Source: a virus
Length of the DNA: 64,000 bases
IMG/VR virus record: IMGVR_UViG_3300045988_015843
Direction: 5' to 3' (one strand)
The notes beneath the pieces were generated by a model that worked only from the letters and a program-made list of their open reading frames with translations, did no database searches and was not told the origin of the DNA. Shown here in pieces: positions 9,031 through 61,137 of this stretch (position 1 is the stretch's first letter; every line of letters begins with the position of its first letter). The translations under genes were made by a program, and so were the position numbers.

Positions 9031-9038
9031 TATAAATA

Positions 9039-27986: not shown

Positions 27987-28611
27987 CGCTCTTGTAGGCT
28001 CTCTAATCGCATTTCTAACAGCGTTTGGTATAATTACTCATAATAAGAATAAAATGCTCTCAGAAGAGCTTTTAGAGGCCTAGAATAACATTGAAGCCTA
28101 TTAGGGAATGCTTAGTGGTTCCCAATAGGCTAACAATGTCTTAACGCTTAATATGAAGAAACTCGGATAGTCTAAAGATTCATTATTGGTTGAGATGGAT
28201 CGTATAGCTAAGGAGAATAATATTAAGTCTAAAAATATCATAACTGGTGCAACCAACCATGAGCAAATAGACGTTACCCTCGACAAGGGGGTGGAGAGGG
28301 TTGTTGAGAGAGATACTATTAGAGATCTGGTAACTATATTAAAAGATACAGTATATACAGACTCTATACTATACAATCCTCAAACATCCGTACACTACAC
28401 TATAGGTAGAGATACGGTATAGGTGAGACTTAAGTTAGATAATACACAATACTTGTACATATATAAACGTAAGGAATACAAAAACAAAAAGAACTTCTTC
28501 TAGAGATTATTTACTCTTGATTGGAAGAAAGTAACTAAGTACAAGTATAAGATAATAAACACGAATGATCTTATAAACAATAAAGATGTTCGTATAGTAA
28601 ACGCTTAGTAA
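27961..28611 (+). CDS. Spanin-like protein (N-terminal TM plus coiled coil, 216 aa), 8 in-frame TAG
   Basis: Frame 1 runs from ATG 27961 to TAA 28609 and includes track ORF 28186. TM segment: IVYNALVGSLIAFLTAFGIIT. Confidence 0.4.
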
Positions 28612-39339: not shown

Positions 39340-42300
39340 ATGCGTAGAAAGAAACACGGTGACGTCTTAGATCCAACGATACATGTTGGATATGAGTTAC
39401 TTAAAAATAGAGAAGCTATTAACTATGCTGTAGCTGCTCATGAAAATGAATCTAAAGCAATAAGGCGTAGCTACACGGAAGCTTATGCTGAGTTAAATAA
39501 AAAACGTGCAAATGCTGTAAATACGCTTATTAAATCCGATAATCCAGAAGAAGTATCATTGGGTAAACAGTTGCAAGCAATGTGGAAAATGCAGCCTGAT
39601 AACGACAAATCAGATGATGCTAAATCTGCTCTTGTGGACGTACTTAGTGGTGGAATAAATGCTGATTTAAATTTATCAGTACTTTCGCACATAGACGGTT
39701 TGGGATTAAACAAGCTTATTACGCCTGATAATACACTCTCATATCTCAGTAGGCTTAATTCAACACAAGCTGATTCTGGAGTTGGTGCCTTGCAAAGACT
39801 TAGTAAGTATGAAGATCATATCAACAATTACTTAAAAGTCCTTGATGCTAAGAAAAAGATAGAGTATCTTGAACAACAAGAAGCTATTCTGAATGATCAA
39901 GCTATTAAGACGTCAGATCCTAAGATGAAGCAGTCGTATTTAAAGCGCTTGTATCAGGTGCGTGATTCTAAATACGCACAAGCAGATATTTTAAATGCGT
40001 ACCAAAAGGATGTTGATATACTTGAGAAAGCAGACCCTACATCAGCTGGTGCAATGATTGATAAGACCAGAAAAGCCATTGAAGACTTTTTTAATCCCAT
40101 GTGGGAAACAACGCCTTTGCGAGATGTATTGAATGATGCAAAAGCACCATTGTACGATTTAAAATCAAAGAGTGATGCTGAAAAACGTAATGCATTGCAA
40201 CAATCATTACGTAACATTGCTGACATCAAGCCATTGTTACAAGCTAATGTTGATCGTAATCTAAAAGATGCTGCATATTATGAACGAAGAATAAGCCCTG
40301 AGTTTGTTGCTAAAAGAGATACTCCAGGTATGGACTTTTTTGATGCAGATACTTATTTATATAAGATGTCTGGTGTAATGGGTTCATCTGGTACATCTTG
40401 GAGAACTCAAATTGCATCTGCTGTTATTGGTGCTGCAGGTGGACTAGCAGCCTCGTTTACAGGAGGTGCATCTGTTGCAGCAGCAGCTCCAATAGTATTT
40501 GGATTGAATTATGCTGCTGGTATTGATGAGAACCAAGCTGAAGTTGCAACAGCTGCTCGTGAAAAGTTTACGGCAATGCTTGGTGGTGAAAACAGTCCTA
40601 AGTATAAGCAGTTTATAAAAGATGGTCGTGCTCAATTACCTAAGAACATATCTGTTCCAGATTCTAGGATTGTTGATATGTATCTAACCGGTTAGATTGT
40701 ATCGAATAAATCTGATATAAATAGAGCTAAGGTTGATACTCATAAAGATATTGAGGCTTTGTTTACAAAAGATATGGTTGCCACTACAGCAAACAATCTA
40801 ATTAATACTGTGTTGGAAGTAATGCCATTCGGTAAGAGTGTCTCAGAAACAATGGGTCTCAAAAACTGGAAGTTCTATAAGAGAGCTAGCGCAATACCCA
40901 GATACTTACGTAAAAAAGGTGGTCTTGCTAAAGAAGCTTATGAAATAGGTTCTGCATTTAAAGCTGGTGCTAAAACTGGTTCTAAGTTGTTTTCACCACT
41001 TGGTGTTGGAGGAACAACTATTGGTGCAGGTATTGGTGGAGCTACAAACACTGCGTTTAGATATATAGGAATGCCGTTCGGAGATCCTGGTTTTAAAAAG
41101 CTTTGGGGTAGTATTACTGACAAATTTCATAGAGTGGTCAATGCAGTAGACAGAGTAAATATCAAATGGTTGAAGAAGTTTAATGCTAAACCTGCTAAAG
41201 GAATTCTTGGTGATAGATTTATCGAGATGAACTATTTTCAAAACAGAAATTATGGTTTGGAATTAGCTAAACGTCTAGGTATATCTGGTGTTTCAGAAGG
41301 TGTTGAGGAAGGTAAACAGTATTAGAATGCAGAAGATTTTAAGAAAGGTTATGATGAACGTCAATTAAGAACTGACGTTATAAGTCTTGCATTCGATGAT
41401 TTCTTAACAGGTCTCGATGTTGGTAGAGATATACTTTCAATACCACTAGATCCTATTGGTATACTTAAAACTAAAGATAAGGATAGACTTGCTGAGGTTA
41501 AGGGCGGTATGTTAGCTGGTTTAACACACGTCGGTTCCGTCGGCATTATGAACTCTGTAAGCCCGTATCTTGAAGAGAAAAGTGCTAATAAGTTCTTAAT
41601 TGAGAACATGCTCACTGAAAATGTTATCGCCAACGACAAGTTAGATAAGCTTATGCATTATTCTAATTCGTCGAGAGAACAGTCTGGCATATGGGATAAA
41701 ATAAAAGCTGGTGTAAAACAAGGAATAACACGCTCAAACAGACTACAGGCCCTTGAAAAAGCTTTTGCTAATTTTAAGGAGCTGAATCAAAAGGAATATG
41801 AGAATACTGGTGACTATATCACATCTCCTGAGAATATAGACAAAGAGTTTGCTGACTTTAGAAGAGCTGTTGGATTAACTAGATCTACACGTATGCAAGA
41901 GATGGCTGAACGTGCTGGAGTTGACACTAATAGTGATGACTATGGCGCATTTGTTGCTACGTATATGATGGCTGCTGACAATCTTCTTGATAAGTCAAAA
42001 CAGTTTGCTAAGAACGAAAGTGAGCGTAATACTGAAGCTAATAAGATACTAAATAGTATTAGTATTGTTAATGAACAAGTACTTGAGGACGCTGGTGTAC
42101 CTAGAGCTTTATGGAATGATCCTAGATTTAATGGTGCAGAACATGATTTAAAACGACCTTTTATTGAACGTCTTGCCAGATTACAAGCATTGCTTGAGAC
42201 TAAGCAGGAACTTGAAGATGCTCTAAAAGCTGGTGCTAATAGAGCGATTATGCGTAAATACATTGACGGTATTGAGCATCAGATTGATATTGTAAAAAAT

Positions 42301-45300
42301 GGACAATATCAAACAGATCCTGAGACTGGTGAACAGGTTAGAGTTGGAGGATTATCTGACCTTGCTCAACGACTTTATTCTGCAAAAATCGGAGTTGATG
42401 ACAAAGGTTATAATCTACATGTTGGAGAATCTATTAATACTCTTGATGATATTGCAGCAGTATCCGTAGATCAAGAAGCTCAAGATAAACTTGCTGATAT
42501 ATACAGACAATCATATCTCGAACAATTTAACATGGAAAATGCCAGTGCTGCATTAGAACAGATTACTGGTACCACAAAGATTGTTAAAGATGAGAATGGA
42601 GAAGACAAAGTTGTTGTTGATAAACCGAGTGGGTTTAATACTATTTGGGATAAGATAAAGGAAGCTCGTAATGACAACGATGTGTTTTGGAATGAGCTTA
42701 CATCTGATGCGTTTAAGACGGATGAAGAGCTTGAAGCCGATAAAGATGCTGGTGAAGTTTATGAAAGTGGTTGGAGTAAACTACGGAATATTACCACAGA
42801 ATACGCTCTCGATGAAAAAGGAGACCGTATTAAAGCGGATGAAAACACTAAACTAAAAGACGATTAGACTGTAAGTCAGGACGGGTACGTATTAAATATA
42901 ACAAAAGAGTCTCCCATTAAAGAGCGTTTGATATTTACTCCAGAAGATCAGGACGAAGTGTCGAAATCTAATGAATATCAAGAAACTATTGAAAGTATTG
43001 CACCCGATATTAAGATTGCATATGGTTATGAAAATAGTTCCAATATAGGTTTAGTAACACAACAAGTTGGCGAAGCAAAACAGCAATTGTTAGAAGCTAA
43101 AGAGTCTGAGAAGCGTGCTAAAGAAGCTGCTAGACTCAGAGCTGAATTGAAACGTAAGCTTGAGAAGGAAGCTGATGAAAAACGCAAAGCATTCATTAAA
43201 TCAAATCCTAAGTACGAAGGTAAATCTAACGAAGTAGTTGATGCAGCTATTGCTAAGCATGAGAAGATAGTACAGAGACGTAAACAACGTGAACAAGAAC
43301 GTGAAGCCAAGGCTCTTGCGAAGTAGATTGAAAAAAATAAGCTTACTAGAGTTGATGGTAAAGTTCATATTGATAAAAAAGGTATTTCACATAAAGTATA
43401 TTAGAGAAAAGATGGTACTTATGTGACAGTACGTTGGGACGAACTTGGTAATCTTAAACAAACAGTTGTCAATAAAAACGATATTATCTCTGAGAAACAG
43501 GGCCTTATAAACGATGCATACACAGAACTTGTCAAACTCATAAAAGAGGTTGACGGACATAACGGCGATGTGATGCGTGCGATACTGTCTAAGATATAGA
43601 TCTCAGATCTTTCAAAGAACGGTATTCTTAATACGTATACACAGCTTTACAAACTACTAAAGGTTGCTGGTAGAGCAAACTCTATTGACATCTATGAGGC
43701 TGTTGTTATGCTTGGATATAGGTTAGCATCTACAGGATATGTGTGGAACAGATCTATGTCTGATCACGATGTTATTGATAGCAATGATATTGAAAATGAT
43801 TATGTTTAGAATGATAAGTTACGTATTGATGAACAACGTTTGAAGTCATTAGATGCTCCAATCATTTATCACAATGGCAAGATTGTAAGTAATCCTACTG
43901 CAACTGTCGAACGTGGTATGTCGTTATCAGATGCTATTAAAAAGGCTAGGTCTGGTGACAAAACGATTGTTGCTAAACTCGTTGAATACAAAAAATATCT
44001 GTCTGAAAATTTAGAAGCTGCTGTTGCAGATATACAATATCCTGGAGATGCAAACGCGGCAAAGTTGATTGAGAAAATCGATCACGAGTTAGATGAACTA
44101 AACAAGAGTCCTGAACAGAAAAAGATCGATAAGATCGTTTCAGATAAAGGTTTAACTAAAACAGATGATGTTTATACGTACAAAGATGGTCGTCAAACAC
44201 CAGTATACTTAGATAAAAATGGAAAGAAATGTATATTATCTAAGTCTAAGAAAGGTTATCGTGTAAACTATACTGTTAAATTTGATCAGAAACCTGCAAC
44301 TAAACCTGAACCTGCTCAACCAGCGCAACCTACTAAACCTATATAGCCTTCTAAACCAGAACAACCAACACAGCCTACTCAGCCTACATCTACCAAACCT
44401 GTTGATAAACCTGTAACCACGGATAAGACTACGCTTTCTCCTCAACAAAAAACTGTCGAAATGCTTGCTAAAAAACGGGCTGAAGACAAGTTAAAAGTTG
44501 GTGTTGATGGTTACGAATTAACAGGACAGGCTTATTTCATAAAAGTTGATGGTAAAATACAACGATTCAGACGTGTTCATGCTACTATTCCTGCACAAAC
44601 TTTAAATCTTAAGAGATCTATTGATCGTATGATCAATACTTTTGAGTAGATTTATAACGAACCAATGTCTGATGAAGAGGTTGTTTAGGAGGTAGTAAAC
44701 ATAATAGAAGATGTCATAAAAAATGGTGCGTATGTAAAGCTCGAACGTGATCGTTGGAGCAACAGCCATGTCACAATTGTTGATTTTGAGAAACAACCAG
44801 GCCTTGAGAGACATCCGCTTTCTGCGCAAGCAATTCATGATCTGAATGTATACTTGAAATATCTCAAAGAAGCAGGGCCGTTTAATTATGATGAGTTTTT
44901 TGGTATAGTTAGTGATGTTGCACACATCATAGCATCAACAGAACCTGGTACATCTGTACATGTTGGTAATGTAGTAGAAGGTGTTGTTAACCATGTCGTA
45001 CAACGTGTATTGGATCAAGGTTATGAAAATATTGTTGGTACTGAAGAGCAACTTGTCGATGAAATACTTAATACAAGATCTCATGACAGTTTTAAACAAT
45101 CATCAACTCCTGAATCTGGTGAATACGGATCTAACCGTACGTATGACGAGTGGTTTAATAAAAACAGAGGCGTAGTAAAGAATCTTGTATTAGATGTATT
45201 AAGATAGCTTAAATCTTTCCACGACTTAGGTTGGGTTGTACAATCTGAAAAGCTTACATTATATGGGGAGTTTAAAGGTGTTGGTCGTGTTGCTGGAGAA

Positions 45301-48300
45301 CCTGATCTTATTGCTATTGATCAAGATGGTGGTATCCACATGATCGATATTAAAACATCAACAAAATCATTCTACGATGGTGAAGGTTATTCTAGTAGAT
45401 ATGTTGATGTTTATGGTGCTGATACATGGGGTCAGAGATTTAGCACACAAACGCAATACTCTAATCAACAGACTGCATATAGAATGTTGATGAAAGCATC
45501 GTTAGGATTAGATACAACTGCTGAATTAATGCCGTATGTTGTAGACTACAACTACGGTACTGGACTGATATCAAATGTTGTGCTTGAGCCACGTATTCCT
45601 ATTATATATTCTGATTTTATAGAGGCAATGTTCAATGGTGTGGAGTATTCAACGACTGAAAACTACACTATGATGTCTGGATTCTCTGAACGATTTGTTC
45701 AAGGTATTTTGGATACATATAATACAGCAATAGAAAATTACAATAAAGCTGTTTCTGACTTTGAAAGTCAGGTTGGACAACTTCCCAAACAATTCATGTT
45801 TGATCTCTCTATTATTGAGTATATGACCCCTGCACAGTATACTCTTGATGAGATTCATAGAATAGACGCAAAAGCTAAAAGGTTGTGGGATATTACGCAA
45901 CAGATACATCATTGTATCGAACAAGCGTTGGCTAATGAAGAAGATAAAGCCAATGGGCAATCTACTACCGGGTCAAATCCTAAACCTTAGGCTACACCAC
46001 AGCCTGAAACTAAACCAGAACCTGAAAAACAACCTAACGCTCAAACAAAGCCTAGTGAACAACCACAAGTTAAACCAAGTGATAGTTCTACAGAACCAAC
46101 AGGTTTGATTAGACTTTCAGACGGTTAGGTTTATAAATTCTCAGTTAGTTTCGAGAATCCATATCCGCAGATTCAAAGCGATCGTGCTGAAAGAGATACA
46201 CAGTTTGCAGCTATAATAAATGCTGCTGACTTTGGATTACCTGAAACCACTTTTGCTACGATATCTAATACTGGTAAAAATCTCGATAAGATATAGATTA
46301 AGATAACATACGTAGATAGAAAGACTGGTAAGAAATATGAGTTTGGTAAGACTCTTCCTAATGGTAAGCGAGATTATTTGTTTATAAACTCTGGTAATAA
46401 CTTACCGGGACATGACGTTACAGCAAATTTCAGAGCGTTATATGATCTGGCTATGCAGCTCACAGAGTACAACAAAGCTAATCCTGGCAAGAAAGCTATT
46501 CTTCGTGTCACATAGTGGTATCGTACAGATGGTAGGATGATATATAAAGAGGAGGATGGTGTTGTGTCTCGTGAAACACATCCTGTCGTAGATCCTAAAC
46601 TAGGCATTATTACAGACGATCTATATCAATTTAGTGCTGAAAGCCAAGTTCCTGGTGATACACGTACAATGTTAAACGATATAGGCTTTGTAAAAGATGG
46701 CGCTGTTTATACGTATGGCGATAGTAGTACTAGACGTCAATTAGATGTTGTACCTAAAGATATCCCTAATGGATTTATAGTATATTCTAAACGTATACCA
46801 AGAGCCGAAGCACCTGGTGGATTTAGACGTCTACCCATTGTACTAAGGAAAAGAGCCCTTTCTGACGGAGATGTTAATTTCATAATGGATGTTCTTAAGG
46901 ATCCATCATTGCTTGGCCAACCTTATAATGGGTTACATGGAGCAACGATAGGTTCTATAAGTAATCTTATTTTACCTATTATAACAGACGCTAAGTACCT
47001 ATCACCTCAAAAGAAGCTGTTTGTAGATCGTGCTAGCAATACAGTTTATTATATAACTGCTAAAGAATGGAAAGATGCCAAAGACGGTGTTGGAACACTG
47101 AAGGGTTACAACATGTCTAATGAAAGTCATGTTGAAGAGTTAAAGCAAAGGATAAAAGATTTGTCTATAGAAGTTAACTCTGATATGATGCAATCTAGAT
47201 TTGGTAATGACACTGATTCAAACTTACCGTTGAAAGCTATACGAGAGTGGTTCAACGACAATCCTTCAGAAAAAACATTTACAGTTAGAGGTAGTCTTGG
47301 TAATACGTCAATATCATTTGATAGGAGTGATTTCCAAGATCATAAGACTGATAACGGCGATGTGTATAATGGATTAAGTGGTGCTGGTTGGTATTTACGT
47401 AGTGGTATATTACAAACAAATGCTGTTGGTATTGGTGCACCTCACGTTCACATCAACGCAGTTACTATGGACACTAAAGGATATCCGAAAAAATTGTTTA
47501 GTAACGGAGCTATTATTGATGATACTACAGAGTCAAAACAAGAGCCCAAGACTGAAACTAAGCCTGAATTGAAAATAAATCCAGATTCGAAGAAAAAGCC
47601 ACCTAAACCTAGTCCAACGAGCGGTGGTTAGAAATCTGATTCTGCATTAGGTGCTTTATCGTCACTTCTTGACACGCAAGATGACAATCAAGTCACGACC
47701 GATAATATAGATAACCAATCTGCTGATCAACAAGCTTTGGATAATGAACAGATAGAAGACTGGGAGCTCTTTCATATTGGACGAGTTGCCACAGGTAAGA
47801 CTATCAATAAAGAGAAAGCTCGTAGACACGCTGAACATATTCTTGGAAAAGAGTTTGTTTCTGATGATAGAACATTTGGATTTATTGATGGCGTTATTAA
47901 ACAATTCGACGATGGATCTGCTGTATTAGGTGTATGTAGAAAAGATTCGATAAGATTATCATCACTCGCAGAGAACGGTGTTGAATATCACGAGGCGTTC
48001 CATAGAATATTCGAGCTTATTATACCAGAGCATTTACGTGATTCTATATACGAAAAGGTTGCTGCTGACAATGACATAGATTTGAAAAACGATCCTGATT
48101 ATACGAACCATCGTAAGGTTGCAGAGTTGATGGCCGATTGGTATTGGGATTATCAAGTTGGACGATTCCATGTTGATTCTTACAACATATTCGCAAAAGC
48201 TTGGAATAGAATGCGTGACTTTGCATTACGTTTCACCAATAGATATCGTAATGATCGTGCGATATTAAAACTATTCTCTGATATACGTAGAGGTAAGTAT

Positions 48301-51300
48301 GCATCTCGTAAAGCTAATAGTAGTGCTATAAAACGATTTGTTACAAACTTTAAAAACAACTTGATGTACAAACAGCATGGTAAGGATTTCAAACACATCG
48401 TTGGTGATGAAATGTATTATCATATTGTTGAAAGTGCAAAGTTCTTCGTATTTACCGGATCTGATATAGCTGTTAACGGTTCAAATATATCTGATTTGAG
48501 CAATGCTTTAAACAAAGAAACTATTCTGAAAGGTGCTCAACGTCTTGCTGATGCAGGCAATGATATACTCGGAATCAACTTATCTGAAGACCAAAGAAGT
48601 GAGGGTCAAAAAGCATTGTTTGAGCTTATAGACAATCTTGATAATATACAGTTTAAATTAGATCTTGCTAATTCTATAAAAGCTATTAGTACTAACTTCG
48701 AACAAGTTGAATCTGAAAAAGCTGATAACGATGCTGATGCAGGTGATACGTATTCTATAAATCAATCTATAGAAGGCCATATAAAAGATGCCGTCGAATT
48801 CGATCCGTTTGAGAAAACGTCTCAGCAGGTCAGATTCTTCTTTGCAACAATACCAAATCAGAAATGGTCATATATGCCTAGTATACAAAATGGTAGGGTC
48901 AAGCTTGTTCGTACTAAAGAACAAGTCTTTAACGAGTATGGTTTACCTGAGTTTATACCTGTACGAGATGCTTATAACAAGTTTATAAACACTGTACATA
49001 ACGTAGATACACTCGATGAACTAATTGATACTCTCAACAAGAAGGCTCAGATAGAACCGTTCTATGAGACGATTGCTGAGAACATAAAGGCTGTTATGGA
49101 TAAGCGCATGTCATATGATGGAGATTCTGTCAAATATGACATTGATGCTGAAAACCTATTAGTTCAGATAATGGCACAAGCTCGTTCTAATAAGTACAAC
49201 ATGGTTACCATGATGAGCTCTAGTGCTGAAGAAGGTGTTGATACAACATTCGGAGAGTATAAGACTAGAGTCATGCCTACTGGTGTAGAGTATCAAGCTA
49301 GAAATACAGCTATTTCTTGGTCATCTAATTTTGCTAATGGTGGTACAAATCTTGTTAAGATAACTAAAGTTGGAAAGCGTGCTATAAACGATAAGGATGC
49401 TGATGCAGCTAGTACGTTCTCAAACTTTGCCAAGTTCTTAACTGGTACATATGATAACAAACGTTTATCCTTGAAGGATTTTATACAAAACGCTATACTT
49501 GGAAAGCTTGGACTGAAACAATACTTAGGATTACCAGTTGGAAACAAGATATTTAAGATACAAGATATAGACGATGTTTCAATGCAGTTATGTAAAGAAT
49601 ATATCGTACAACAGTTGAATTCTATGGGTATTAACATAGAACTCAATGCGTTTAACTATATGCTTGTTGAAAAATACGGTTCTGCTGGTGCTGAAGCATT
49701 GTTGAAGATGCTAACATCAACAAATGTTGAGGATTCTATGACTACATTCATACAGTTCTTAAATAACATTGTTGTAAACAACCAACTAAATGTTACAGAT
49801 GACAACAAGTTCTATGTTGGATCTTTGCCAGTCGCACTTGATTTGATCTATACAAAGTTTGCATTCACTAGTAATCTGGCTAACTGGCAGTATAGATATA
49901 AGCAAGCAACAACTTAGTTATCTGTAAAGGGTTCTGGTAATAACCTTAAATACTTAATATCTCAAAACAACTTCTTAACAGATAGTACTCGTGACTTCAA
50001 TAAAAGGGGTCCTCAATTCCAACTTATATCATCTGGTACAGATCCATACATCTATTCAACACGTACAGATCCAAATACAGGCCAGTCTATTTGGGCAGGA
50101 TCTTTTGTATTGCATAGTATGTTAAATAATAGCCAAGCATCTATTGAATTACAATCGCTTGATGGATTCCGTACAGACAACAAAGGTGATTATGGTGCAG
50201 ACTATTTTTAGATGACGAATGACGAGGATATTCTAAGTAAGATTAGATTCTTGATGGATAATTCTCTCATATTCCAAACATTGTCTGATAAGAAGAGTTA
50301 TTTCACCGTACATCTCAAAGGTTTCCGCATTCCTGGTATTGATTATTCTCACATGTACGATAATTCTGGAAAGGTTGTTGTAGATGGTAATGCGTTAGGT
50401 GATCAGATTACCAACGGCAGTTGCTCATATGATATTGCTGGTTTTGGCACACCTGTATTAATGCAAAGACAAGACGTCATAGATCAACTTTTATCATATG
50501 CATATGCTGAGCGTGAAAGTATTATTAAGACTATTAACGCAATGTCTGAAATGACTGATGATGAGAAGAAGAAGGCTGTTAAAAATTTCTATTCTTCTCA
50601 AAACGGTGCTAAATTCTCATCATTGCTTGGAATATGGCCTGTGACTGAAAGCGGTGTTGGATCATATTTATCGTTTAATAATGAAAAACTAACTCCTAAA
50701 AAAGCTCTCGAAAGAGCAGATGAATACTTCTTTGCACCAACAGTTGGTAATAAACCAATGACAGAGCGGGCTGCTAATGACTATCGTAGAACTTTAATTG
50801 AGCTGAATTTACAAAGGCGTTTAGACGCTATGATGGAAAACTTACAACATCGTGGTCTTATTGCAAAAGATTCAGATGGTTATTTAGTAAACAAAGGTCT
50901 TCCAGCAGATGCTATTGAATTTATAGCGAAGTCACTACTTAGAAAACAAAACAAACTCGATGCTACAGGAAACGCTATAGACCAGAACACAATGCGTATG
51001 GCAATACATACTGCAATCGGACTGTTTGCAAACGACATGATGGTTAAATCTATCATGTCAGTACAAGAAACCGAACGTATTTATGCAGCAAACCCTGCGT
51101 ATTTCAAATGGAAGTACGATAAGAATACTGGTGAACTATCTGATCGTACTGTAGATGAGCTTAAGCGTGCTGGCGGTTTCGTATCTACTGGTATAAACAA
51201 CTTTATGGAACTTACTAACATTCCTCAACACTGGCTTGATAAGGATGGTTAGTTTACAGGTGAATATCGTTGTTGTGAGATTAAAGATGAAGAAGTGGCA

Positions 51301-54300
51301 TCTCCTCAAATAGAGGAAATTAAAACACTAATGACAACGTCTGCTCGTGTACAAGCGTTACGTGAACATTATCTAAAACAACAGAAGTCTGATTATGAAG
51401 AGCGCATACTTAAGATGAAACGTGACGAACGCCCTAACGAAGATGAACAGTTATATGAGCGTGAACGTATTGCATAGGATGTTGAAAATAAACTCGCTAC
51501 GATGAGTGATGACGTCGTTAAGCGAGAGCTTAAGTCATTAGGTATGTTGGATATTATAGACAAGAAGTCGAAAGCTGCGTATAATAGTTATACAGGAGGC
51601 ATTGATGTAAATGACGGTGCTGCATATATAACAGACGATATGTGTGAGATGCTTTTACGAATGGTTGGTTCGTATTCGTCAGAGGTGGCCGAAGCGTTTA
51701 AAATATTACGATCTACGTCTGTTAAAGATATGCGTTAGATTGCAGATGCATATACTAAGGTTATAACAACTGTCATTGGTACATAGAAATATACAGCCTA
51801 TGGCCGTAGGTAGGATTCTACTGGAAATATTGTAGATTATTATCACAAATATGCGCTGTTCCCAATATTCCCAATGCTTGCAACTGGTAAATTAGGAAAC
51901 ATCTATAATATGATGAAAACTAATAATACCGACATGGTATTGATTAGCTCTGCTGTAAAAGTAGGAAGCCAAGGTGCTGTAGCTAATCCTAAATGGGATG
52001 ATTATCGTCAAGATAATGATAAAGATAACAAAGCTAATTACAACAAAGACGGTTCGTTAAAGCCATTGTTTTCAGAATCATTTAAAGTCAACCCGTATTC
52101 TGTATCGTTTGAATATCTTCGTAAACAGTTAAATACTGATCCGAATGAGAAAAAGTATATGAATATTGGTACTTAGACTACTAAGATTGCATTAACAAAC
52201 TTGAATCTCCATGCACAATATTTAACAAGAAGTGGTGAAGTTAGATCTGGTTAGTAGATACATGACGATATCATGCAATCTATGAATGCTCTTAGTAATA
52301 TCGGAAGAGATTAGTTACGGAGCCAATATTTCTTAACAAACGATAAAGGATAGTTTGTTGATGAGAACGGAAATGTTGTAGATAAGCCTGTTGTAGATCC
52401 AGTTAAGTATTCGAAAGCATTAAAACAAATCATTGGTTCTGATAAAATAAGTTTGAATTTAGCTTAGGCACTACAACTTGTTCCTTATAAATACGGTAAT
52501 GGTAAAACTCGTTACAGGCTCAATATGCCTTTAGATGCTGTACAATCATCTAATTTCTTAGAATCTAAGATTATTTCTAATATAAACAAGTCTGTTATTG
52601 ATACTAAAACACCTGGTGCTGCATTCATACAACGCTCTGTGTGGGGTATGGAAGGTTCTACGCTATATGATAGTCGTAAAGGCAATATTGTAAGTGATGA
52701 TGATATTGCTCCGTCTATAAATGGTGGTAACAGCCTTCAGATGGTTAATGAAGAGGGCTCTATGGACTGTGTATTATCAGTAGATTTCTTTACAAAGATT
52801 CTTGGTGACTTGTTCCATTATACAACTGGTGGCGATTATATACTCGATAGATTTGGAGAGCGTATACCAGTAACCAGAATATATAAAGGCAAGACTTTGT
52901 ATAAAGTTAAATCTGCAGACATGTTTAACGAAGGTAAGTTTGTAGAAACATGGGTCGATGACATAGACAATCTTCCTGATGGTACTGAGGTAGTTTACAA
53001 GAAAAATAAAACAGAACACCATACACGTAGTTTTGATGAAGTTCGTCAATACCTGATAGATCAAGGTATGATTGGTCCTAAAGCTAAAGCTAACATTCTA
53101 GCTTATCGTATTCCTACACAGGCTCAATCATCGATCCACGCATTAAGATGCGTTGATATATTGCCTGTTGTTAACGATACTGTAATGCTACCTGCAGAGT
53201 TTACTAGAATTACAGGATCTGACTTTGATATTGACAAACTATATTTAACAGCTCTTAATTATCATAATAGAAAAGATGGTGGTGTATCTGATATATACGA
53301 TGAGGGTACTGAAAAATATTATCAAAACAAGATTGTAGATGCATATCTCGCATTGTTGACAGACAGAGCTGACGAGAATTCAAAACCAAGATCGTTTATA
53401 TCATTACACCGTTCTATTGATAACGATACACAGTTAGCATTTGACGCATTAAACGAAATTGGTACAACAGATTCTACCAAGACTGAACAACCATATCAAT
53501 TCTACGATCTTACTACTCAGACTGGTGTTAAGAATAGTTATATAACTGGTAAAATTGGTATTGGCCCGTTTGCATTGAACAACAATAATCACATCTTGAC
53601 ATGGCTATATCATGTTAGCTTTAAGCCAACTAAGAATTCAATCATGACATAGTTTGGCTTGAATAATCTTGATAATATGACAGATATAGATGGTGATTCT
53701 ATAATGGGTTGGTTGTCTGCATTTATTAACGGACACGTGGATATTGCTAAAGATGCGTGGGTTTCTCGTTGTAATGTAAACCCGTTCACATACAATTTAA
53801 CAAACTTGTTACTACGTACTGGTTGGGGTAAGAATACAATATTCTTTTTACGACAACCTATTATGATGGCAATGGCTGATGCATATATGAACGCTAGTTC
53901 TGAATATATGTCAGACGGAACATCAAAGTTTAGACGTCAACAACAAGCTATAGACGATGTTGTGTTTGGAGAAGATAGTAAATATCATCTTGAAAATGTT
54001 GTGGTTAGTGGTAGTACTGTAGCACAATGGTTAGAAGTTTTTGAAAGTAACGATCCTGAAACAGCTTAGCTTAAAAAGGGTCTTAATGAAGACTTGAAAA
54101 AGATACTGACTCGTGAAAATATGCTAGCTTAGGCTAAAACACCTCTTGGCAAAATGGGCGATATATAGTTCCAAGCAGCTGTCTATCTTGCATACAAACA
54201 GTTCGATAAATACGCAAATGCATTGTCAAATCTAGTAAAGTATTGTAAGATTGATACTAAGAAACAGGGTAAGAGTATAGCAGAACAACTTGTTTGGTAC

Positions 54301-57300
54301 GAAGGATACGATGATTTGTTTAACAATGGTGAAACTGGTGCATTGTTTAACAGAGCGTCTCTTTTAAAGCTTAGAGATGAAAGCTATGTAGGTGTTAAGA
54401 CTGAAAATGCTATCAATGCTACAAAACATATTATTGAAGGTCAGTTCTTCAGTGGTTCACATTAGTTTATCAAAGCTATTGAAAATTTAAGCAAGCTTGT
54501 TGGTAATGAACATCGTTACGAAACTGTTAATTTTGTCGAAGCAGCTACAAAAGCTATTAGCGCATCGATCAAATCAGAATACTTTAATTATTATGTCAAT
54601 AAGCTATTTGGTGATTCTACATACGTAAGAGATCTTGTTAATGGGAGTTCGGAGCAGCATAACGTAAGATATCATTATGATAAAAAGGCCCCTTATATCG
54701 AGGTTGATGAAGATATGATTTATCCATTGAGAACGTATATTGGTAAACCGATAAATATTTCATGGAAGACCAAAAGCGGTTCTCAAATGAAAGCATATCC
54801 GAATGTTATCGTTGCTATTAGTGGTAATAAAGTATATCTTCAGAAGGAGATATAGTTCAATAGTAAGGGTAGAAGATCACCTCTTACTGTTGATGCCAAT
54901 ATAGATGTACAATTTACTCAAGGTAATAATACAATATATGACCGCATAGGAGCTCTTAAGACTCTTATTGAGAACAACAGTGCTCTTGCAGATCTTAAAG
55001 GTAATATATTGTTGCGTGATATAATATTAGCTGCAACATAGAAGTATACTCCATCTCATAAACGCATTGCTGGAGAAGCATCTGATACGTATGATGATCT
55101 TAAGTTCATTAAGCTTGAAACATTCTTTGAAGATAATGGAGATAAGACTGATCAGTATATTAGAGCATGGGATTCATTGCTGAGATATACTAATGATAAT
55201 GAAAGATTGTAGAATGCCATTCGTAAATTAGCAAACGATCTTGTTATATACGCATTTATAACATCTGGCGATACTAAAGGATCCACTAAATTATTCCAGT
55301 ATGTACCTGATTCCTGGAGAAACGGTGAGTTTAATCCTGAAGGTGTGACATCATATGCTGAATTTATTCGTAATAAACTTGACGAGTTAAATGGTTATGG
55401 CGAAACTAAGATAGATCTTGATGATGTTATATTGAATAACTGGCAAAATGATCAGTTTGTACCAAGATATCGTGTGGATGATAAGGCTGAATAGCAAAAG
55501 CTGACACCTATATATACTGACGGACGTAATACATATGGTTATCCTGTAGTAATTCAGGGTATGAACATTGAAAAACCTGCGGATAAAAACCATATGCCTA
55601 AGGTAAATGTTGTAATAGATCCTACAAAGGCTCCTCAATATATTAAGATAACCCGTGATTATAAACATCGTAATTCACAAAGACAGTATTCTATATACAA
55701 GTTCCACTCTGTTGCTCAAACTGCTGATGGAATAAGGTATCCTATATACGTTAAAGTTGAACCAAAAGGTATTACTATAAAATCTTCTGGTGGTACGTAT
55801 ATGGTGACAGAATATGGTCGTTCAGACAGACTAGATAAGGCTGAGAATAGCACTATACCTGAACTGTTTGAGTTGTTATACACAGCTCAAAACTTCCAAG
55901 ATCAGTTGAGAGGTATGCCTAAGAGTGATCTAAAGGATTCTAATATATTATAGGACCTTAGACGATTTGCTGAGTTGGACATGGCTGAAAAGATGGCCAT
56001 CAGTCGTAGATCATATAGTGCTAATATGGACATTGCACAAACTCAATCTGTTCAATTTAATGATACAACTTAGAATGTGAATGGTGTTACTAACACTGCT
56101 GTAAATCCGCTTACTATATCTGATAAAACTGAAGCATTTGGTGTAACTGTAGATCCTAAGCTTAAATAGAATTACAAACAATGGTTAGTAGATCATCCAA
56201 ATGGTATTGTTGCGTATAGGATTAATTATAATAACTTTAATACTGCTGAAAATGTAAATAAGAATATTATAGGAAATCCATTTGATTGGTAGAAATATGG
56301 TCAAGAAAAATCACTATAGATGTTCTACGAATGGCTTACTACAGGGACTAATCATGGCGAAGTTTTAGCTACCGATGAATATCGTAATGCTATAATCAAC
56401 AAGTTGCTAAGTATAGACAAGCCTGAAATTTTATATTACAAAGAACTTGGTCATCCTAGTCATGCAACAGTTCTTGGATATCTTATTGAACACAAAGAGC
56501 TGTTACAACCTCAATCTCAAGCAAGTACGTCTGTTACCAGTAGTGCTACTTAGACAAATGATAGACCTGTTAATATATATTTTGGCAATGGTCAAAATGA
56601 TGAAAATATCGAATTAAGTAATTTTGCAATAAGGCCGTTTTCGTTTACGCCAAAAGATTTTTATTTCGGAGATGATGCTCGCGAACACCAGTTTTATAGT
56701 GTAGAATAGGCGTTTTAGTATTATAAAATAATGGTGTTGGCGTCTATGTCCGGCTCTTTAAATTATTCGATACCTACAGGTGCTCAAGAGGCTGCTAGAA
56801 AAAGTATAAGTGCAAATAGAAACATTTTATTAAAAAGAGCACGAGAGATATTAAATGCTTCAACTTCTGCGCATGCGAGATATTTAGGTAGACAGCCTCT
56901 TGGATTGTAGGATGTATCTTCTCAATTTGGAACTATTGCCTCTGCCAAAGATATTGAAAAGTCTATATTTAAAGTTTGGGATGAGAGAAGTTCAAAAATA
57001 ATGAAGGCTCTTATTAAAGCTTCTTTTGAACAGAATCCTCAAGCAGCTCAAAGACTTCTCGACACTGGTAACGCTACACTCACGCATAACCAAGATAAAT
57101 CTAAGTGGAAGATTGAATTCCCAAGATTGTTAATGGAGGTTCGTGATGAGTTACGTAAATCTCAAAGTAATAGTGTTGATCAAACAAGTAGTATCGTAAA
57201 TATAACCAATGATCCTCAAGAAATTATTAGTCTAAACAACGTTGTCATAAGACCATTTGTGCATACGTTCGAAGACGGTAGTAAAAAGGAATTTAAATCT

Positions 57301-60300
57301 ATAGCACAAGCCTTTCAATATATAAAAGCAACGTATGCAGATCCTGTTGTTAACGAAAATATAATTAGACAGATAGAACAGACTACAGATCCTTCTGATT
57401 TAATAGACCTTGGTGAATTTATCAAACAACTTGATGTTAAGTCTTGGGATAATGATTCTTATAATATAATGACACAATTAACCAAAGAATCATTTGAACA
57501 AAATCCATCTGCTGCTAAGATTTTGACTAATGAATTACGTAAAATCGGTGTTGACACTTCAAGTAAACCTCAGAGTAATAAATCTTATAACAGTATAACA
57601 ATAAGCACAGGTTATACAAAAGGTGAACCTGAGGATAATCCGAATACAGATTATGTATTTACTGAGAACGCAGAGGCTGCATTAGCTGTATCAAGTCGTG
57701 GACACGGTCTGGATAAGAGTGGAATATTTGACCAAGAAGAATTCCCGTTCAAAGGCAGTGTTAAGTTGAACGTATCTGATGTACATCAAACTAACAGTGC
57801 TGCTGTACGTACTGACGCCAAAGGAAACATTACACAAAATGCATACGGTATTGTTGTTAAAAAATATCAACATGATGCGAATGGTAAATTTGTAGCACAA
57901 CCAGGATGTTTTGAAGATACAGATGAAGATTTTAAAAAATTCAAATCTATCAATAATATCGTCTTTAAAGACATAGAGCAATCTAAAAACACAAACATAG
58001 TATTTCCGTCACAGATCGCTCTTGGGCGAGCTGCGTTACCATTGCAATTTGCGGGCTGGTTACACAATTAGCTTGAGCAAAGATTTGGGTTGGAGACTAA
58101 TATAGAACGATCTAAAAAAGCTTCTTACGAAGGTTATGGTTTACGTGTAATTGGAGTTGGTACAAAAACTAACACATCTGTTGATACTAACAGCCAATCT
58201 AGTACTGAAGATTCTAAACCAAAGACTAATGAAGACAGTAAGTCTGTACAACAGATTAAATTAACAGCTGGTCAAGAAACTGCTAAGAAAGCCATATTGA
58301 ACTTTATAAAGACTGCAGATGCTTCCAAAGGAGAGTATTTCACTCTAACAGGTAAAGCTGGTACAGGTAAGACTACGTTAATACAAGAGGTTATTAGAGA
58401 GATTGCTAAAGACAATCCTTATCAGAGATTTGTTGTATCTGCATTAGCTCATAAAGCAGTACAAGTCATATATGGTAAGACTAAAAAGTCTTCAAAGTTT
58501 GTTTCTGCTTCAACCGTAGCATCGTTACTTGGTATGAAATTAGATCAAGAAACTGGAAAATTCAAGCAAGTTAAAAGTGGTAAATCCAAGATTAAACCCG
58601 GTAGTATATTGTTTGTAGATGAAGCGTCTATGTTGAATGAACAGAATATAGAATGTTTAATAGATGCTGCAATAAGTAGCGATTCTAAAGTCATATTCTT
58701 AGGTGATCCTGGACAACTTCCTCCAATACGAACAGGCGATCTCGTTAAGTACGGAACTGATTCGTTATCTCCGGTATTTAAGACCCAAAAGGATGAATAC
58801 TCAGCAGGTCTTACAGAAAGAATACGACAAGGAGAAGGTAGTCCGATATTGGATTATGCAGATACGTTCTGGAACTATAGTACAACAGAAGGTTAGACTG
58901 ATCGACGTGTTAATGACGAAAATATGTCTCGTGTTGAAAACGCTCAAGGATCTATTGAGTTTATAAACGAACAACAGGTTGATAAGATAGTACCGTTATT
59001 TAAACAAGCTGTTGAAACAAACAATCCTTCATTAGTTAAGATTGTAGCATATCATAATAAAGCTGTTAAAGAGTGGAACCAAGATATTCGTCGCAGTGTG
59101 TATGGTGATGAATATAGTCCGAACCCGTTACCTGGAGATATTCTGATGATGACAGATACATACAATGACCCAACGTCTGATGTTGCAAAACCGTTATTGT
59201 TTAATAGTGAAGATATATCTGTAATTAGTACAGGACCTATTCGTACAGTAGATGGTATTCAAATCATGGAGACTACTATAAAAGACGCTCGTGGCAAAAT
59301 GGTCACAGTGCCTTTAATAATACCTACTGCACAGAATATAGCTGCGTTTACTGCTCAGAAAAATAAGTTATTTAGTTATGCTAAGTCGCTAAAATCCAAG
59401 AATTATAGAGCATATCTTAATGCATTAGATACGGCTTGGAATTATGGAACAGAATGGGCTCATGTTGAATATGGTTATGCTATAACAAGCCATAAATCAC
59501 AAGGTTCTACATACGATGTATCTATTGTAGATTCTGCAGACATCAACAGTAATGAATTTATGTCAGACATCAGTAAAGCTCGTAGTATCTATACAGCTAT
59601 AACAAGAGCTCGTAACTCAGCTGTTATCTTACGTGACAAGCTTGGTACTCTCGATGTTGATCTGAAACAGCTTAATGACCGTATAAACGGTTATAAAGAT
59701 GGTTCTGTAACACCTCCTGCTCAGATCACACCTGATACTGTAGATAATGTAGGTAATACATATAAAGAGAATATCGAAACATTGGAGTCTGATAAAACAA
59801 TATTATCTAATGAAGAGATATTGAAGCTTAGACCATTTACTGGTAATGATAAAGCTCCTCGTATAGCTGTTGCGTCCGAACATACTGATCCTGTATTTTT
59901 TGCTAAGCATATAAAAGACTTCTTCGATGGTAAAACATCTGTAAAACGAAAGTTCGGTGATCCAATCACGGCCAAAGACATCGATGCTTTATATATTATA
60001 ACAAAGCATGATGGCATTCCTTTAAGAACCATTCTTTCTATAAAAATACCTAAGATAATACATTTCAGTATAACAGGCATGGGTGGTACTAAATATGAAC
60101 CTGGTGTTATGCCATATAACGAATTACTTGATCGTATTGGTGATTATATAAAGCAAGGTCTCGATCCATCTATGGTAACAGTTCGTATTGATCCTATTAT
60201 ACCTGGTGTAACACCTAGACATGTTATTGAAAATATTATAAAACGAGCGTCTTCTATGGGTATTAAGAATATAAGATTTAGTGTTATGGACTTTTACTCA

Positions 60301-61137
60301 ACAACAGCTCAGTTTACAGAAGCTGCTGGTTTTGATTATTCTAAATATTACATACCGATGAAGGGTTATGATGGTAAATAGCTTATGACATTGATATCTA
60401 GGGACGGAAGATCGTTTTATGACTCTAGTGATAAAAATTCTCCGCTCAATAGTGCTAGAGGTAGGAGAGTTGGCAACAGCATTGTTGTTACTGTGAGTTA
60501 TGGAGCTGAGACGAAGATGTATGTTCGTGGCAAAAGTGGTAAAGTTTTGACGAAGACTATAAATACGTCTGAAATGACCGATGATGCCATTAAGAGTAAT
60601 ACTGGGTGGAATGCTTTAACTGCAGATCAAATCATACACGACTAGGTAGCAAACAGAGTAGCTGCTGGTGTATTATTACAACCGATGTATGAAAGACACG
60701 CTCGAAAAGAGGTAATAACCAACATTGCAAAAATAGTTAAAGAATATGGAGATAAATATGGTGTTACGTTGTCGACATGTGCTGAACCAGATATTCTTCC
60801 ATCTGGAATATCTCATGAGGGTTGTTTGAGCGTTTAGGCTATAAATAGAATACTTGGTACGCATATTGACGATAAAGGTACGGATAATAACAATATTAAA
60901 TCAAGACCTCTTTGTTCATGTTATGGTGGTAAGACGGATATTCTTGCATATGATAAACGTTGTGCTTCAAGCTGCACATACTGCTATGCGCATCACAATA
61001 GTAACGCTGCAGCACTTTTATATAACAAAGATGGATCTTTGAGGAACATTCCTCTCACAACTACTCGTAAAGATACTGAGAAATTTGATGATACAGATAT
61101 TGATGATAAATTCATATATCATTGTAAAGGTAAATAA
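39340..61137 (+). CDS. Giant polyvalent virion protein (7265 aa) that includes the crAss-type virion RNA polymerase region
   Basis: There are 23 track fragments: 39340, 40759, 41509, 42928, 43840, 44461, 44854, 45340, 46537, 47737, 50212, 51295, 51502, 51874, 52525, 53659, 54223, 55561, 56320, 57001, 58090, 58924 and 60385. All are in frame 1. I read every gap codon by codon. Only TAG interrupts the frame (about 52 times). The first TAA/TGA in frame is TAA at 61135. Confidence 0.8.
44461..45990 (+). other. PD-(D/E)XK nuclease domain within the giant ORF
   Basis: GEPDLIAIDQDGGIHMIDIKTS at 45295-45360 gives the D ... D-x-K motif. A downstream QYSNQQTAY supplies the Q..Y motif, and RRVHATIP lies upstream. 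Confidence 0.6.
46537..55953 (+). other. Virion RNA polymerase-like region of the giant ORF (catalytic DFDID at 53221-53235)
   Basis: ITGSDFDIDKLYL is a DxDxD metal-binding motif of the type found in the crAss-like virion RNAP. Region size and position after the cargo genes fit. Domain limits are approximate. Confidence 0.55.
47989..48003 (+). other. HExxH zinc-metallopeptidase motif (HEAFH) within the giant ORF
   Basis: The context is NGVEYHEAFHRIFELIIPEH. This is a motif-only call. Confidence 0.4.
56170..56553 (+). other. DUF4326-like segment
   Basis: IGNPFDW(Q)KYGQEKSL(Q)MFYEWL ... ILYYKELGHPSHATVLGYLI resembles the GNPF ... W ... CH..VL pattern. Low certainty. Confidence 0.3.
56554..57180 (+). 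other. NADAR (YbiA/DUF1768) domain 1
   Basis: Pattern: LSNFAIRPF ... FYSVE(Q)AF(Q)YYK ... GRQPLG ... W ... SFEQNPQAAQRLLDTGNATLTHN... Confidence 0.65.
57220..57540 (+). other. NADAR domain 2 (shorter paralog)
   Basis: Pattern: VVIRPF ... FKSIAQAFQYIKA ... SWDNDSYNIMTQLTKESFEQNPSAAKIL. Confidence 0.55.
58240..59650 (+). other. SF1 (RecD/Dda-like) helicase domain
   Basis: Motifs:
- Walker A: TGKAGTGKTT (58351-58377)
- Walker B: ILFVDEASML
- LGDPGQLPPI
- YAITSHKSQGSTYD
- YTAITRARNSAVIL. Confidence 0.8.
59830..61040 (+). other. DUF1848-like domain at the C-terminus of the giant ORF
   Basis: Pattern: IAVASEHTDPVFFAKH ... ITGMGGTKYEPGV ... VTVRIDPIIPG ... C-terminal Cys cluster CSCYGGKTDILAYDKRCASSCTYCYAHHN. 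Confidence 0.5.

Follow-up and report, generated by a model that had tools for sequence, protein, structure and literature searches.

Very long RNA polymerase (RNAP) genes, encoding up to ~6000 aa, have been described as characteristic of crAss-like phages (PMC10136315). In the Steigviridae ΦcrAss001 and phi14:2, the parts considered here are encoded by separate genes. PD-(D/E)xK and HExxH modules are found in crAss001 gp47, while crAss001 gp50 and phi14:2 gp66 contain the RNAP core with its DFDxD loop; gp47 and gp50 of crAss001 lie on opposite strands. The Steigviridae RNAP proteins are encoded in the standard genetic code, and no NADAR, helicase or DUF1848 extension was detected in them. Mass spectrometry has detected gp47, gp49 and gp50 in crAss001 virions (PMC10172136). 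In the subfamily Oafivirinae, TAG-containing giant ORFs are known from RefSeq, with products of 6,386 aa in cr272_1 (YP_010113476.1) and 5,801 aa in cr130_1 (YP_010113266.1), and of 4,372+1,401 aa in cr131_1, where a group I intron splits the gene at DFDID.

Two further systems are relevant. Polyvalent proteins (Iyer et al., 2017, PMC5512222) are virion-associated chains with many unrelated enzymatic domains, organised around a zincin-like MPTase that displays an HExxH helix and a Glu on the next conserved helix; in N4-type vRNAP such an MPTase stands beside the virion RNAP. In code 15 gut phages (Yutin, 2021, PMC7886860; Borges et al., 10.1101/2021.08.26.457843), the late/structural block is recoded and headed by a suppressor tRNA(CUA). 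For one phage of the Suoliviridae, MS/MS has validated that TAG is decoded as Gln (PMC10136315).

A 7,265-codon ORF under purifying selection

The window analysed here comprises 64,000 nucleotides (IMG/VR virus record IMGVR_UViG_3300045988_015843). Judged from its sequence, the phage is a gut crAss-like phage of the Oafivirinae, a subfamily of the Suoliviridae, with a capsid protein (MCP) that shares 82-86% identity with those of cr272_1 and cr124_1. On the plus strand, as for all features below, positions 39340-61137 form a single frame of 21,798 nt from ATG to TAA, with 7,265 sense codons; TAG occurs in frame 52 times, and both TAA and TGA are absent. The closest in-frame stop on the 5' side is a TAA at 39334. 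This recount agrees with the initial annotation, which had proposed one uninterrupted ORF after TAG read-through. With the 52 TAG read as Gln, the predicted product has a mass of ~817 kDa and a pI of 6.2. From base composition, ~406 TAA/TGA are expected over this length (probability of none, ~6e-177), and the remaining five frames of the same interval contain 256-943 of them per frame. The uninterrupted ORF was recovered, with no breaking stops, in three independent metagenome assemblies (6,563, 6,608 and 7,080 codons) at 84-97% DNA identity to the window. In all 500-codon bins, dN/dS against three relatives was between 0.05 and 0.43, and a motif scan found the catalytic motifs along the ORF intact. 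The interval 39340-61137 is a genuine gene under purifying selection and not an artefact.

The ORF follows the virion-protein genes and precedes a gp65-like gene, in synteny with cr130_1, cr131_1 and cr272_1. This next gene of the transcription block (61140-64000), which runs off the window, is homologous to the RNAP-associated protein gp65 of phi14:2, and its N-terminus (MIIACPNL...) matches the genes located after the giants in the same three genomes. Genomic position, gene order and a TAG-recoded single ORF are common to this locus and the giants of cr272_1, cr130_1, cr131_1 and cr124_1. The N-terminal region, the zincin, the RNAP core and NADAR are also shared with the Oafivirinae RefSeq giants, and DUF1848 was detected in that of cr272_1. 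Despite the high capsid identity, the RNAP region is only 26-37% identical to these giants. The middle modules (aa ~1320-2800) have no BLAST-detectable counterpart in them, and a second NADAR, a DUF7831-like domain and a Dda-like helicase are added here. The product had been considered one of the largest phage proteins. It is longer than the known ones, by 880-1,460 codons for the RefSeq giants, but the claim was overstated given the 5,801 and 6,386 aa already reached within the subfamily. One ORF exceeding 4,000 codons, with zincin and RNAP and at the conserved position, is what defines the known giant-RNAP family, of which this ORF is an unusually long, indeed the longest-seen, member and not a new kind.

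Modules along the predicted chain

The conserved N-terminal region (aa 1-1240, 39340-43059) has homologues at the N-terminal ends of the giants of cr131_1, cr272_1 and other IMG/VR loci, and gave zero matches in Pfam, PHROG or PDB. A hydrophobic scan revealed a Gly/Ala-rich hydrophobic segment in it at aa ~355-395 (40402-40524). It is followed by a Lys/Glu-rich helical stretch and a further domain (aa 1241-1646, 43060-44277), present in the closest relatives only. Three Pro/Thr/Gln/Lys-rich linkers were then recognised at module borders, in agreement with the initial annotation. Linker 1 lies at aa 1647-1707 (44278-44460) and linker 3 at aa 2727-2800 (47518-47739), with aa 2727-2766 as the part that fits the coordinates of the initial annotation. 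Linker 2 (aa 2203-2256, 45946-46107) differs in length and sequence between strains and carries indels, as disordered linkers do. As had been proposed, the linkers may act as hinges or sites of cleavage.

The region between linkers 1 and 2 (aa 1708-2202, 44461-45945) is a putative PD-(D/E)xK nuclease module. Its core, GEPDLIAID...MIDIKT...QxxxY, spans aa 1986-2047 and is characterised by residues D1989, D2003-x-K2005, Q2043 and Y2047, all invariant across 8 diverse homologues. The QxxxY motif belongs to the RecB/Cas4-like branch of the PD-(D/E)xK nuclease superfamily. The module is homologous to aa 1744-1869 of crAss001 gp47, and its best PDB profile was a PD-(D/E)XK protein with a marginal E-value of 0.0048 (NucS, 1.2). 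The following module (aa 2257-2726, 46108-47517) was found in 11 related loci and has no family match in Pfam; its C-terminal part aligns to gp47. Beyond linker 3, a putative zincin-like metallopeptidase module (aa ~2848-3055, 47881-48504) displays HEAFH at aa 2884-2888 (47989-48003) and a candidate third ligand, E2929. Across 16 diverse homologues, neither the residues H, E and H of the motif nor the E downstream of them varies. This module shares homology with the C-terminal end of crAss001 gp47 (HExxH at 2157), the two putative enzymes have the same order in gp47, and the zincin lies inside the RNAP ORF in 81 of 82 loci. Its top PDB profiles, Pro-Pro endopeptidase/Zmp1 (M34-type), aligned on HExxH...E with non-significant E-values of 0.06-0.27. 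Neither module was matched in Pfam or PHROGs, and AF2 single-sequence models were unusable (pLDDT <50 for the nuclease core, 40 for the zincin-like module). Both assignments are thus putative, drawn from invariant motifs, homology to the equally uncharacterised gp47 and weak PDB profile matches.

The virion RNAP region (aa ~3056-5576, 48505-56067) was recognised by tblastn to Crassvirales genomes, BLASTP and profiles. BLASTP aligned it to phi14:2 gp66 (48% identity over 73 aa, E 6e-11), and profile matches over about 1,100 aa reached E-values of 7e-81 for phi14:2 gp66 and 1e-97 for crAss001 gp50. The motif DFDID is located at codons 4628-4632 (53221-53235). Homology identifies the region as a crAss-type virion RNAP, as had been proposed, with DFDID as its catalytic loop and two barrels assigned from the family. 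The putative zincin next to the virion RNAP recalls N4-type vRNAP, from which this RNAP differs by being of the two-barrel crAss type and not T7-like.

A strain-variable accessory cassette (aa 5577-6294, 56068-58221) was defined by its presence or absence in relatives and by Pfam and NCBIfam matches. It is composed of a domain at aa 5590-5740, two NADAR stretches (aa 5741-5945 and 5950-6070) and a DUF7831-like domain (aa 6080-6275). It is missing in three close relatives, where ~160 nt are found instead, and partial in the relatives L008, L010 and L011. NADAR (PF08719) scored 66.7 bits against a Pfam gathering threshold of 35.1; the match to NCBIfam TIGR02464 (E 2e-12) stayed under the model cut-off (47.6 vs 73.7 bits). 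For the DUF7831-like domain, 153 representative homologues were obtained; most are part of larger proteins (1.5-6.0 thousand aa), and a short one matches Pfam DUF7831. A Dda/RecD-like SF1B helicase follows (aa 6300-6780, 58237-59679), with Pfam AAA_30 and UvrD_C_2 above gathering thresholds, Walker A GKAGTGKT and Walker B LFVDEAS; it matched the PHROG Dda-like helicase (2e-77), PDB entries 9kwf, 8jx6 and Dda 3upu, and NCBIfam RecD2. The chain ends with a DUF1848 module and a C-terminal Cys cluster (aa 6830-7265, 59827-61134), for which PF08902 gave 68.8 bits (cut-off 30.5) with only profile positions 172-262 of 262 aligned. Its Cys residues are at 7147-7215; the C-terminal HCKG recurs in the cr130_1 and cr131_1 giants, and the cr272_1 giant ends in a similar HCKN.

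Accessory modules are gained and lost among relatives, patchy and shuffled in order, and almost always located within the RNAP ORF, in the manner of the variable, shuffled accessory domains of polyvalent proteins (PMC5512222). RNAP, SF1B helicase, two NADAR and DUF1848 were all recognised on one chain by curated models, NADAR, helicase and DUF1848 passing their Pfam gathering thresholds. The initial annotation, which had read the locus as a polyvalent fusion of these modules with a nuclease and a peptidase, is supported in this respect, the last two by motif, weak profile and gp47 homology; it is a fusion relative to the Steigviridae. As in polyvalent proteins, many unrelated enzymatic domains share one chain, whose association with the virion is predicted here. 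NADAR and DUF1848 have 0 occurrences in Iyer et al. (2017, PMC5512222).

Synthesis and fate of the product

The ORF, a late gene of a crAss-like phage in which TAG is recoded to Gln, quite probably yields a single ~817 kDa chain that serves as cargo. Once suppressor tRNA(CUA) is available, translation would deliver one chain of three parts: a gp47-like half (N-terminal region, nuclease module, further module and zincin on Pro-rich linkers), a two-barrel virion RNAP similar to ΦcrAss001 gp50 and phi14:2 gp66, and a strain-variable set of accessory enzymes (two NADAR, DUF7831-like, Dda-like 5'-3' helicase and DUF1848). Because its homologues gp47 and gp50 are present in crAss001 virions, we infer that the product is packaged as virion cargo. 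It would be threaded into the host ahead of or with the DNA, and the RNAP part would next transcribe the early genes. By analogy, and following the logic of polyvalent proteins, the attached enzymes would immediately target nucleic acids of host or phage as well as defences based on ADP-ribose. As the halves work as separate proteins in Steigviridae, a single chain is not mechanistically required.

It is conceivable, with a lower probability, that the chain is translated as a whole and then cut into gp47-like, RNAP and accessory proteins, before packaging or after ejection. Its own zincin or the prohead protease would cut in or close to the Pro-rich linkers, or else where the gp47-like half and the RNAP meet. 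This would agree with the corresponding crAss001 and phi14:2 parts being separate virion proteins and with the placement of the zincin precisely where the two halves join. Moreover, polyvalent proteins are currently hypothesised to undergo autoproteolysis by their MPTase domains, and processing occurs in P1 DdrB, whereas N4 vRNAP, which among MPTase-bearing proteins is the nearest functional counterpart, enters the virion uncut (PMC5512222). The weak resemblance of the zincin to Pro-Pro endopeptidases would suit Pro-rich linkers, but the match is not significant, the linkers flank just two modules of the N-terminal half and not the RNAP or accessory modules, and no conserved cleavage motif was found.

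The phage uses genetic code 15, with TAG as Gln. As in other code 15 gut phages, the late block is recoded: nearly every plus-strand ORF from 5.4 to 64 kb needs TAG read-through, and identical recoding is annotated in RefSeq relatives. TAG makes up 15.7% of Gln codons, and those of the giant ORF are aligned in relatives mostly with TAG, followed by CAG/CAA.

Host RF1 had been suggested to truncate the chain at its TAGs into a graded set of products, a proposal for which the analysis gave no support. That TAG would be a tuned partial stop yielding functional N-terminal fragments or, in the extreme form, several same-frame genes, is very improbable. In its favour, truncation must occur early in infection, when the suppressor tRNA has not yet accumulated, an accepted hypothesis sees recoding as a means of timing (bioRxiv 10.1101/2021.08.26.457843), and each of the three linkers contains one TAG. 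Against this, TAG positions are not conserved: close relatives often have CAG, CAA or GAG there, and this also applies to two of the three TAGs in the linkers (44344 and 45988, replaced by GAG or CAG). The density of 7.2 TAG per 1000 codons equals that of the other late genes, TAGs also occur within the conserved catalytic domains of RNAP and helicase, and in-frame selection spans them all. Full read-through of the 29 TAGs that precede the catalytic DFDID would amount to ~5% (0.9^29) or ~75% (0.99^29), and since DFDID sits behind all of them, the essential RNAP would need near-complete suppression.

An assembly chimera, or a decaying pseudogene merely without TAA and TGA, is effectively refuted: the source sequence is of metagenome type and public gene calls for this phage species end at the first TAG (a 451-aa fragment, 24 copies), but at least four other samples yielded contigs with the same ORF, and the probability of zero stops, the dN/dS well below 1 and the intact catalytic motifs all speak against it.

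Suppressor tRNA and accessory cassette

The suppressor tRNA(CUA) gene (3635-4686) heads the late block as in other code 15 gut phages, and its position matches that of the cr124_1 tRNA(CTA), 5' of the dUTPase gene. Unlike in those phages, its anticodon is split by an endonuclease-bearing insert. The exons (3635-3669 and 4649-4686) are separated between anticodon nt 35 and 36 by 979 nt (3670-4648) encoding an HNH endonuclease ORF. Together they are identical to the intact 73-nt tRNA(CTA) of the relative L095, with the alignment break exactly at 3669/4649, and ARAGORN returned tRNA(cta) for the joined exons. In an Rfam search, no intron model matched the insert, and a signal of group I introns was not detected. 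As the gene is interrupted by an insert without this signal, function of the suppressor tRNA hinges on a putative splicing step.

The variable modules (two NADAR, DUF7831-like, Dda-like helicase and DUF1848) may represent a strain-swappable counter-defence kit tethered to the virion RNAP. Physical tethering would bring the kit into the cell together with the genome, ahead of the expression of any phage gene. Production of the giant chain, like that of every late protein, may in addition be gated by the removal of the endonuclease-bearing intron from the tRNA(CUA) anticodon. Tethered kit and splicing gate, taken jointly, are a tentative and rather unlikely combination. If true, the tRNA(CUA) intron would constitute an RNA-splicing checkpoint on top of genetic-code switching.

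Extent of the giant ORF and decoding of TAG

The giant ORF carrying the virion RNA polymerase (RNAP) runs in one frame from ATG to TAA over 21,798 nt (window 39340-61137, + strand) and comprises 7,265 sense codons. The in-frame stop preceding it is a TAA at 39334. As stated in the initial annotation, it is a single ORF devoid of TAA and TGA, with 52 TAG as the only in-frame stops. From the base composition, ~406 TAA/TGA were expected (probability of none ~6e-177), and each of the remaining five frames of the same DNA contains 256-943 of them. The predicted product has a mass of ~817 kDa and a pI of 6.2. The catalytic motif DFDID of the RNAP (nt 53221) and the three Pro/Thr/Gln/Lys-rich linkers (aa 1647-1707, 2203-2256 and ~2727-2800) were found where they had been placed.

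The continuity of the ORF was checked in independent assemblies. IMG/VR contigs from other samples displayed 84-97% DNA identity to the window. Merging of overlapping relative loci gave uninterrupted ORFs of 6,563, 6,608 and 7,080 codons with the common start MRRKKHG, and in a fourth relative genome the giant ORF runs across the contig ends. The dN/dS against three relatives was 0.05-0.43 in every 500-codon bin, and every part of the sequence is therefore under purifying selection in the frame of the giant ORF. The giant ORF is a real gene and not an artefact, directly observed as one conserved and selected ORF. Along window 39340-61134 (500-codon bins), the synonymous divergence from each close relative varies between ~0.06 and 1.3, suggesting that recombination between co-circulating strains has made the gene a mosaic.

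The + strand from ~5.4 kb to the window end consists of tightly packed long ORFs if only TAA and TGA are taken as stops; these ORFs shatter when TAG is counted too. In codon alignments with three close relatives, the TAGs of the giant ORF were paired with TAG (85), CAG (18), GAG (9) and CAA (7), while in the reciprocal alignment the TAGs of the relatives faced CAG (25) and CAA (7) in the window. This pattern of partners is as expected if TAG is read as Gln. TAG recoding in delta-group (Suoliviridae) crAss-like phages has been reported and confirmed by MS/MS (PMC7886860; PMC10136315). The observed TAG codons for Gln occur in the giant ORF at 7.2 per 1000 codons (15.7% of the Gln codons), a density typical of the neighbouring late ORFs, which display 0-30. 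Late ORFs without any TAG are located at ~20093-21622 (major capsid protein), 9036-10592, 10600-11847, 21778-22539 and 8518-9030, while those at 18057-18872 and 27922-28611 reach 25-30 TAG per 1000 codons. The next gene, coding for an RNAP-associated protein similar to gp65 of Cellulophaga phage phi14:2 (61140-64000, extending past the window end), contains 16.8, more than twice the value of the giant ORF.

Gene calling with the standard code shreds the giant gene. Public gene calls for the species end at the first TAG, giving a 451-aa N-terminal fragment present in 24 entries as 'hypothetical protein' (JGI/IMG, ENA, Logan, and NCBI nr DAW50087.1).

Module composition and turnover

Curated models identified only the C-terminal third of the protein, namely two stretches of NADAR, an SF1B Dda/RecD-like helicase whose Walker A and B motifs are intact, and DUF1848 with a Cys cluster. 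For the first ~5,000 aa, Pfam and PHROGs gave no match, also when ten sub-segments were scanned at E<=1, and neither did a direct PDB sequence search with the N-terminal and central thirds. Homologue searches at the protein level returned nothing for the segment with the low-complexity linker, and one and two fragments for two other segments.

The RNAP region was matched by BLASTP to gp66 of phi14:2, the crAss-type virion RNAP whose structure has been characterised. Matches by iterated profiles covered residues 647-1768 of gp66 (E to 7e-81) and residues 968-1935 of gp50, the RNAP of ΦcrAss001 (E to 1e-97). Upstream, residues 1744-1869 and 1868-2267 of ΦcrAss001 gp47 were aligned with residues 1948-2071 and 2590-3011 of the giant protein, respectively. 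The putative nuclease and zincin motifs of gp47 (...AGEVDILSVD...IYDVKTS...QLSAY..., and YHEAFH at 2157) follow the same order as in the giant protein. In alignments of diverse homologues, the D, D-x-K and Q..Y of the nuclease module and the H-E-x-x-H and downstream E of the zincin module are invariant. In profile searches of the PDB, the top match of the nuclease module was a PD-(D/E)XK protein (E 0.0048); that of the zincin module was Pro-Pro endopeptidase/Zmp1, with HExxH...E aligned, at a non-significant E of 0.06-0.27. Single-sequence AlphaFold2 models reached a pLDDT of 40 for the zincin and 47.5 for the nuclease module, with cores below 50.

From these homologies, the giant protein begins with a gp47-like protein, continues with a gp50-like RNAP and ends with the accessory modules. 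In ΦcrAss001, gp47 and gp50 are encoded by separate genes on opposite strands, and in phi14:2 the RNAP gp66 has its own gene, whereas both parts and further modules form one chain in the giant ORF. The proposed fusion is therefore correct with respect to Steigviridae. The linkers had also been regarded as possible hinges or cleavage sites. The three Pro-rich linkers enclose no modules other than the nuclease and an unassigned one, and the zincin is placed where the gp47-like part meets the RNAP. The giant chain may be proteolytically processed.

Module content was surveyed in ~90 related loci, each covered up to 10 kb on both flanks of the match. Almost all loci have zincin and RNAP, while nuclease, NADAR, helicase and DUF1848 were found in 22, 12, 11 and 10 loci, respectively, and two small cassette domains in four and two. 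Where present, these modules lie almost always within the RNAP ORF. In locus L025, DUF1848 and NADAR homologues are located in a separate 705-codon ORF (15513-17627) overlapping the end of the giant ORF, owing to a true gene split or else to a frameshift. The stretch at window ~56067-58219 (aa 5577-6294) acts as a cassette within the species-level cluster and contains one unassigned domain, both NADARs and a DUF7831-like domain. It is swapped for ~160 nt in three relatives and is partial in L008, L010 and L011.

The 153 representative homologues of the DUF7831-like domain mostly lie inside proteins of 1.5-6.0 thousand aa, which contain NADAR, cpYpsA-SLOG, SF1 helicase, PDDEXK and RNAP in differing orders. 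In one of them (P0042, 6,022 aa) and in proteins of other lineages, helicase, NADAR, DUF7831-like and DUF1848 are N-terminal to the RNAP; module order is therefore not fixed. Polyvalent proteins display combinatorial domain architecture, and virion RNAPs of the N4 type nearly always carry a fused zincin MPTase (PMC5512222). The giant protein family shares this architecture, its modules being directly observed to be shuffled, gained and lost, in agreement with the polyvalent make-up initially suggested. A literature search on crAss with NADAR, DUF1848 or polyvalent, or on DUF1848, retrieved nothing relevant.

TAG read-through and the split suppressor tRNA

Termination by the host release factor RF1 at the TAGs had been proposed to give a graded set of truncated products. 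This was not borne out: the TAG density matches the late-block average, and two of the three linker TAGs are not kept, being GAG or CAG in close relatives. The linker TAGs were rejected as gene boundaries for the same lack of conservation. The spread of TAG along the ORF is only mildly uneven (chi-square p 0.02). With 29 TAGs ahead of DFDID and 52 ahead of the stop codon, yields would be p^29 and p^52 for a per-codon read-through p. At p=0.9, ~5% of the chains would reach DFDID and 0.4% full length; at p=0.99, these values would be ~75% and ~59%. This argues that TAG is almost completely suppressed in late infection and that truncated chains are by-products rather than a series made by design. 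Because a single essential protein requires 52 TAGs to be read, the extent to which these phages reprogram termination has a strong lower bound.

ARAGORN detected no tRNA(CUA) in the window, also in intron mode, and the suppressor tRNA was recovered only by comparison with relatives. Its two halves (window 3635-3669 and 4649-4686) are identical to an intact 73-nt tRNA(CTA) in a related locus (L095 7167-7239). The DNA alignment of both sequences breaks exactly at 3669|4649, and the joined halves gave a tRNA(cta) call. In the RefSeq genome cr124_1, tRNA(CUA) lies just 5' of the dUTPase gene, and the halves occupy the corresponding place in the window. The 979-nt insert (3670-4648) separates anticodon nt 35 and 36 and harbours a TAG-free ORF for an HNH endonuclease (~3696-4596); contig L094 has the same insert. 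Group I introns follow a U and end in G, and the insert is preceded by U and has G as last nucleotide. No group I or other intron model of Rfam matched it. Since the late genes depend on the suppressor tRNA(CUA), we infer that the insert is spliced out of the transcript. Such a split gene may partly explain why suppressor tRNAs have been missed in recoded phages.

ARAGORN also reported a 93-nt tRNA-like gene at 3278-3370 whose anticodon has 4 nt (ggaa); it may be a class II (Leu-like) tRNA that has degenerated. It was rejected as suppressor for want of a CTA anticodon and of an Rfam call. A tmRNA-like gene was found in cr124_1 (L093 9358-9714, tag peptide GNVNNIVDYTNVA by ARAGORN), which is notable in a phage reassigning a stop codon.

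Related giant proteins and proposed function

Megablast against GenBank phages gave no match. The major capsid protein (window 20093-21619) shares 82-86% identity with those of the Suoliviridae/Oafivirinae phages cr272_1, cr131_1, cr124_1 and cr130_1. The RefSeq records of these genomes already list giant CDSs containing TAG in the equivalent position, of 6,386 aa in cr272_1, 5,801 aa in cr130_1, and 4,372 + 1,401 aa in cr131_1, while that of cr124_1 is incomplete, cut through by the record ends. BLASTP aligned the giant protein with them over the N-terminal region, the zincin and RNAP core (26-37% identity) and NADAR, and with cr272_1 additionally over the helicase end and DUF1848. Given the shared position and homology, this kind of object was already known. 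At 7,265 codons, the giant ORF exceeds the RefSeq maximum of 6,386 aa, its closest relative (7,080 codons) and all 152 representative proteins with a DUF7831-like domain (maximum 6,022 aa), and is the longest of ~240 related ORFs and proteins compared. It is the longest-seen member of an already annotated class and extends, without changing, the picture of the crAss-like transcription block.

Group I introns (RF00028) interrupt the DFDID motif exactly in L011 (8877-9757, corresponding to window 53226/53227; E 7e-9) and in cr131_1 (L003 22720-23632; E 6e-10), where the intron contains a 242-aa ORF and splits the giant CDS. The window copy is intron-free.

In ΦcrAss001, gp47, gp49 and gp50 are present in virions and have been proposed to leave the particle in a partly unfolded state (PMC10172136); by homology, the giant protein is most likely packaged virion cargo. 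Once ejected, its RNAP would initiate early transcription and the enzymes joined to it would act without delay. NADAR, SLOG and Macro domains were proposed as virion-packaged counters to ADP-ribose-based defences (PMC9503650). The architecture initially described was right; the proposed TAG truncation found no support, and the linkers are at most candidate cleavage sites. Within one species-level cluster of crAss-like phages, a dominant phage group of the human gut, the virion RNAP gene acquires and loses cassettes of enzymes associated with ADP-ribose and DNA conflicts. This turnover points to pre-packaged counter-defence functions.
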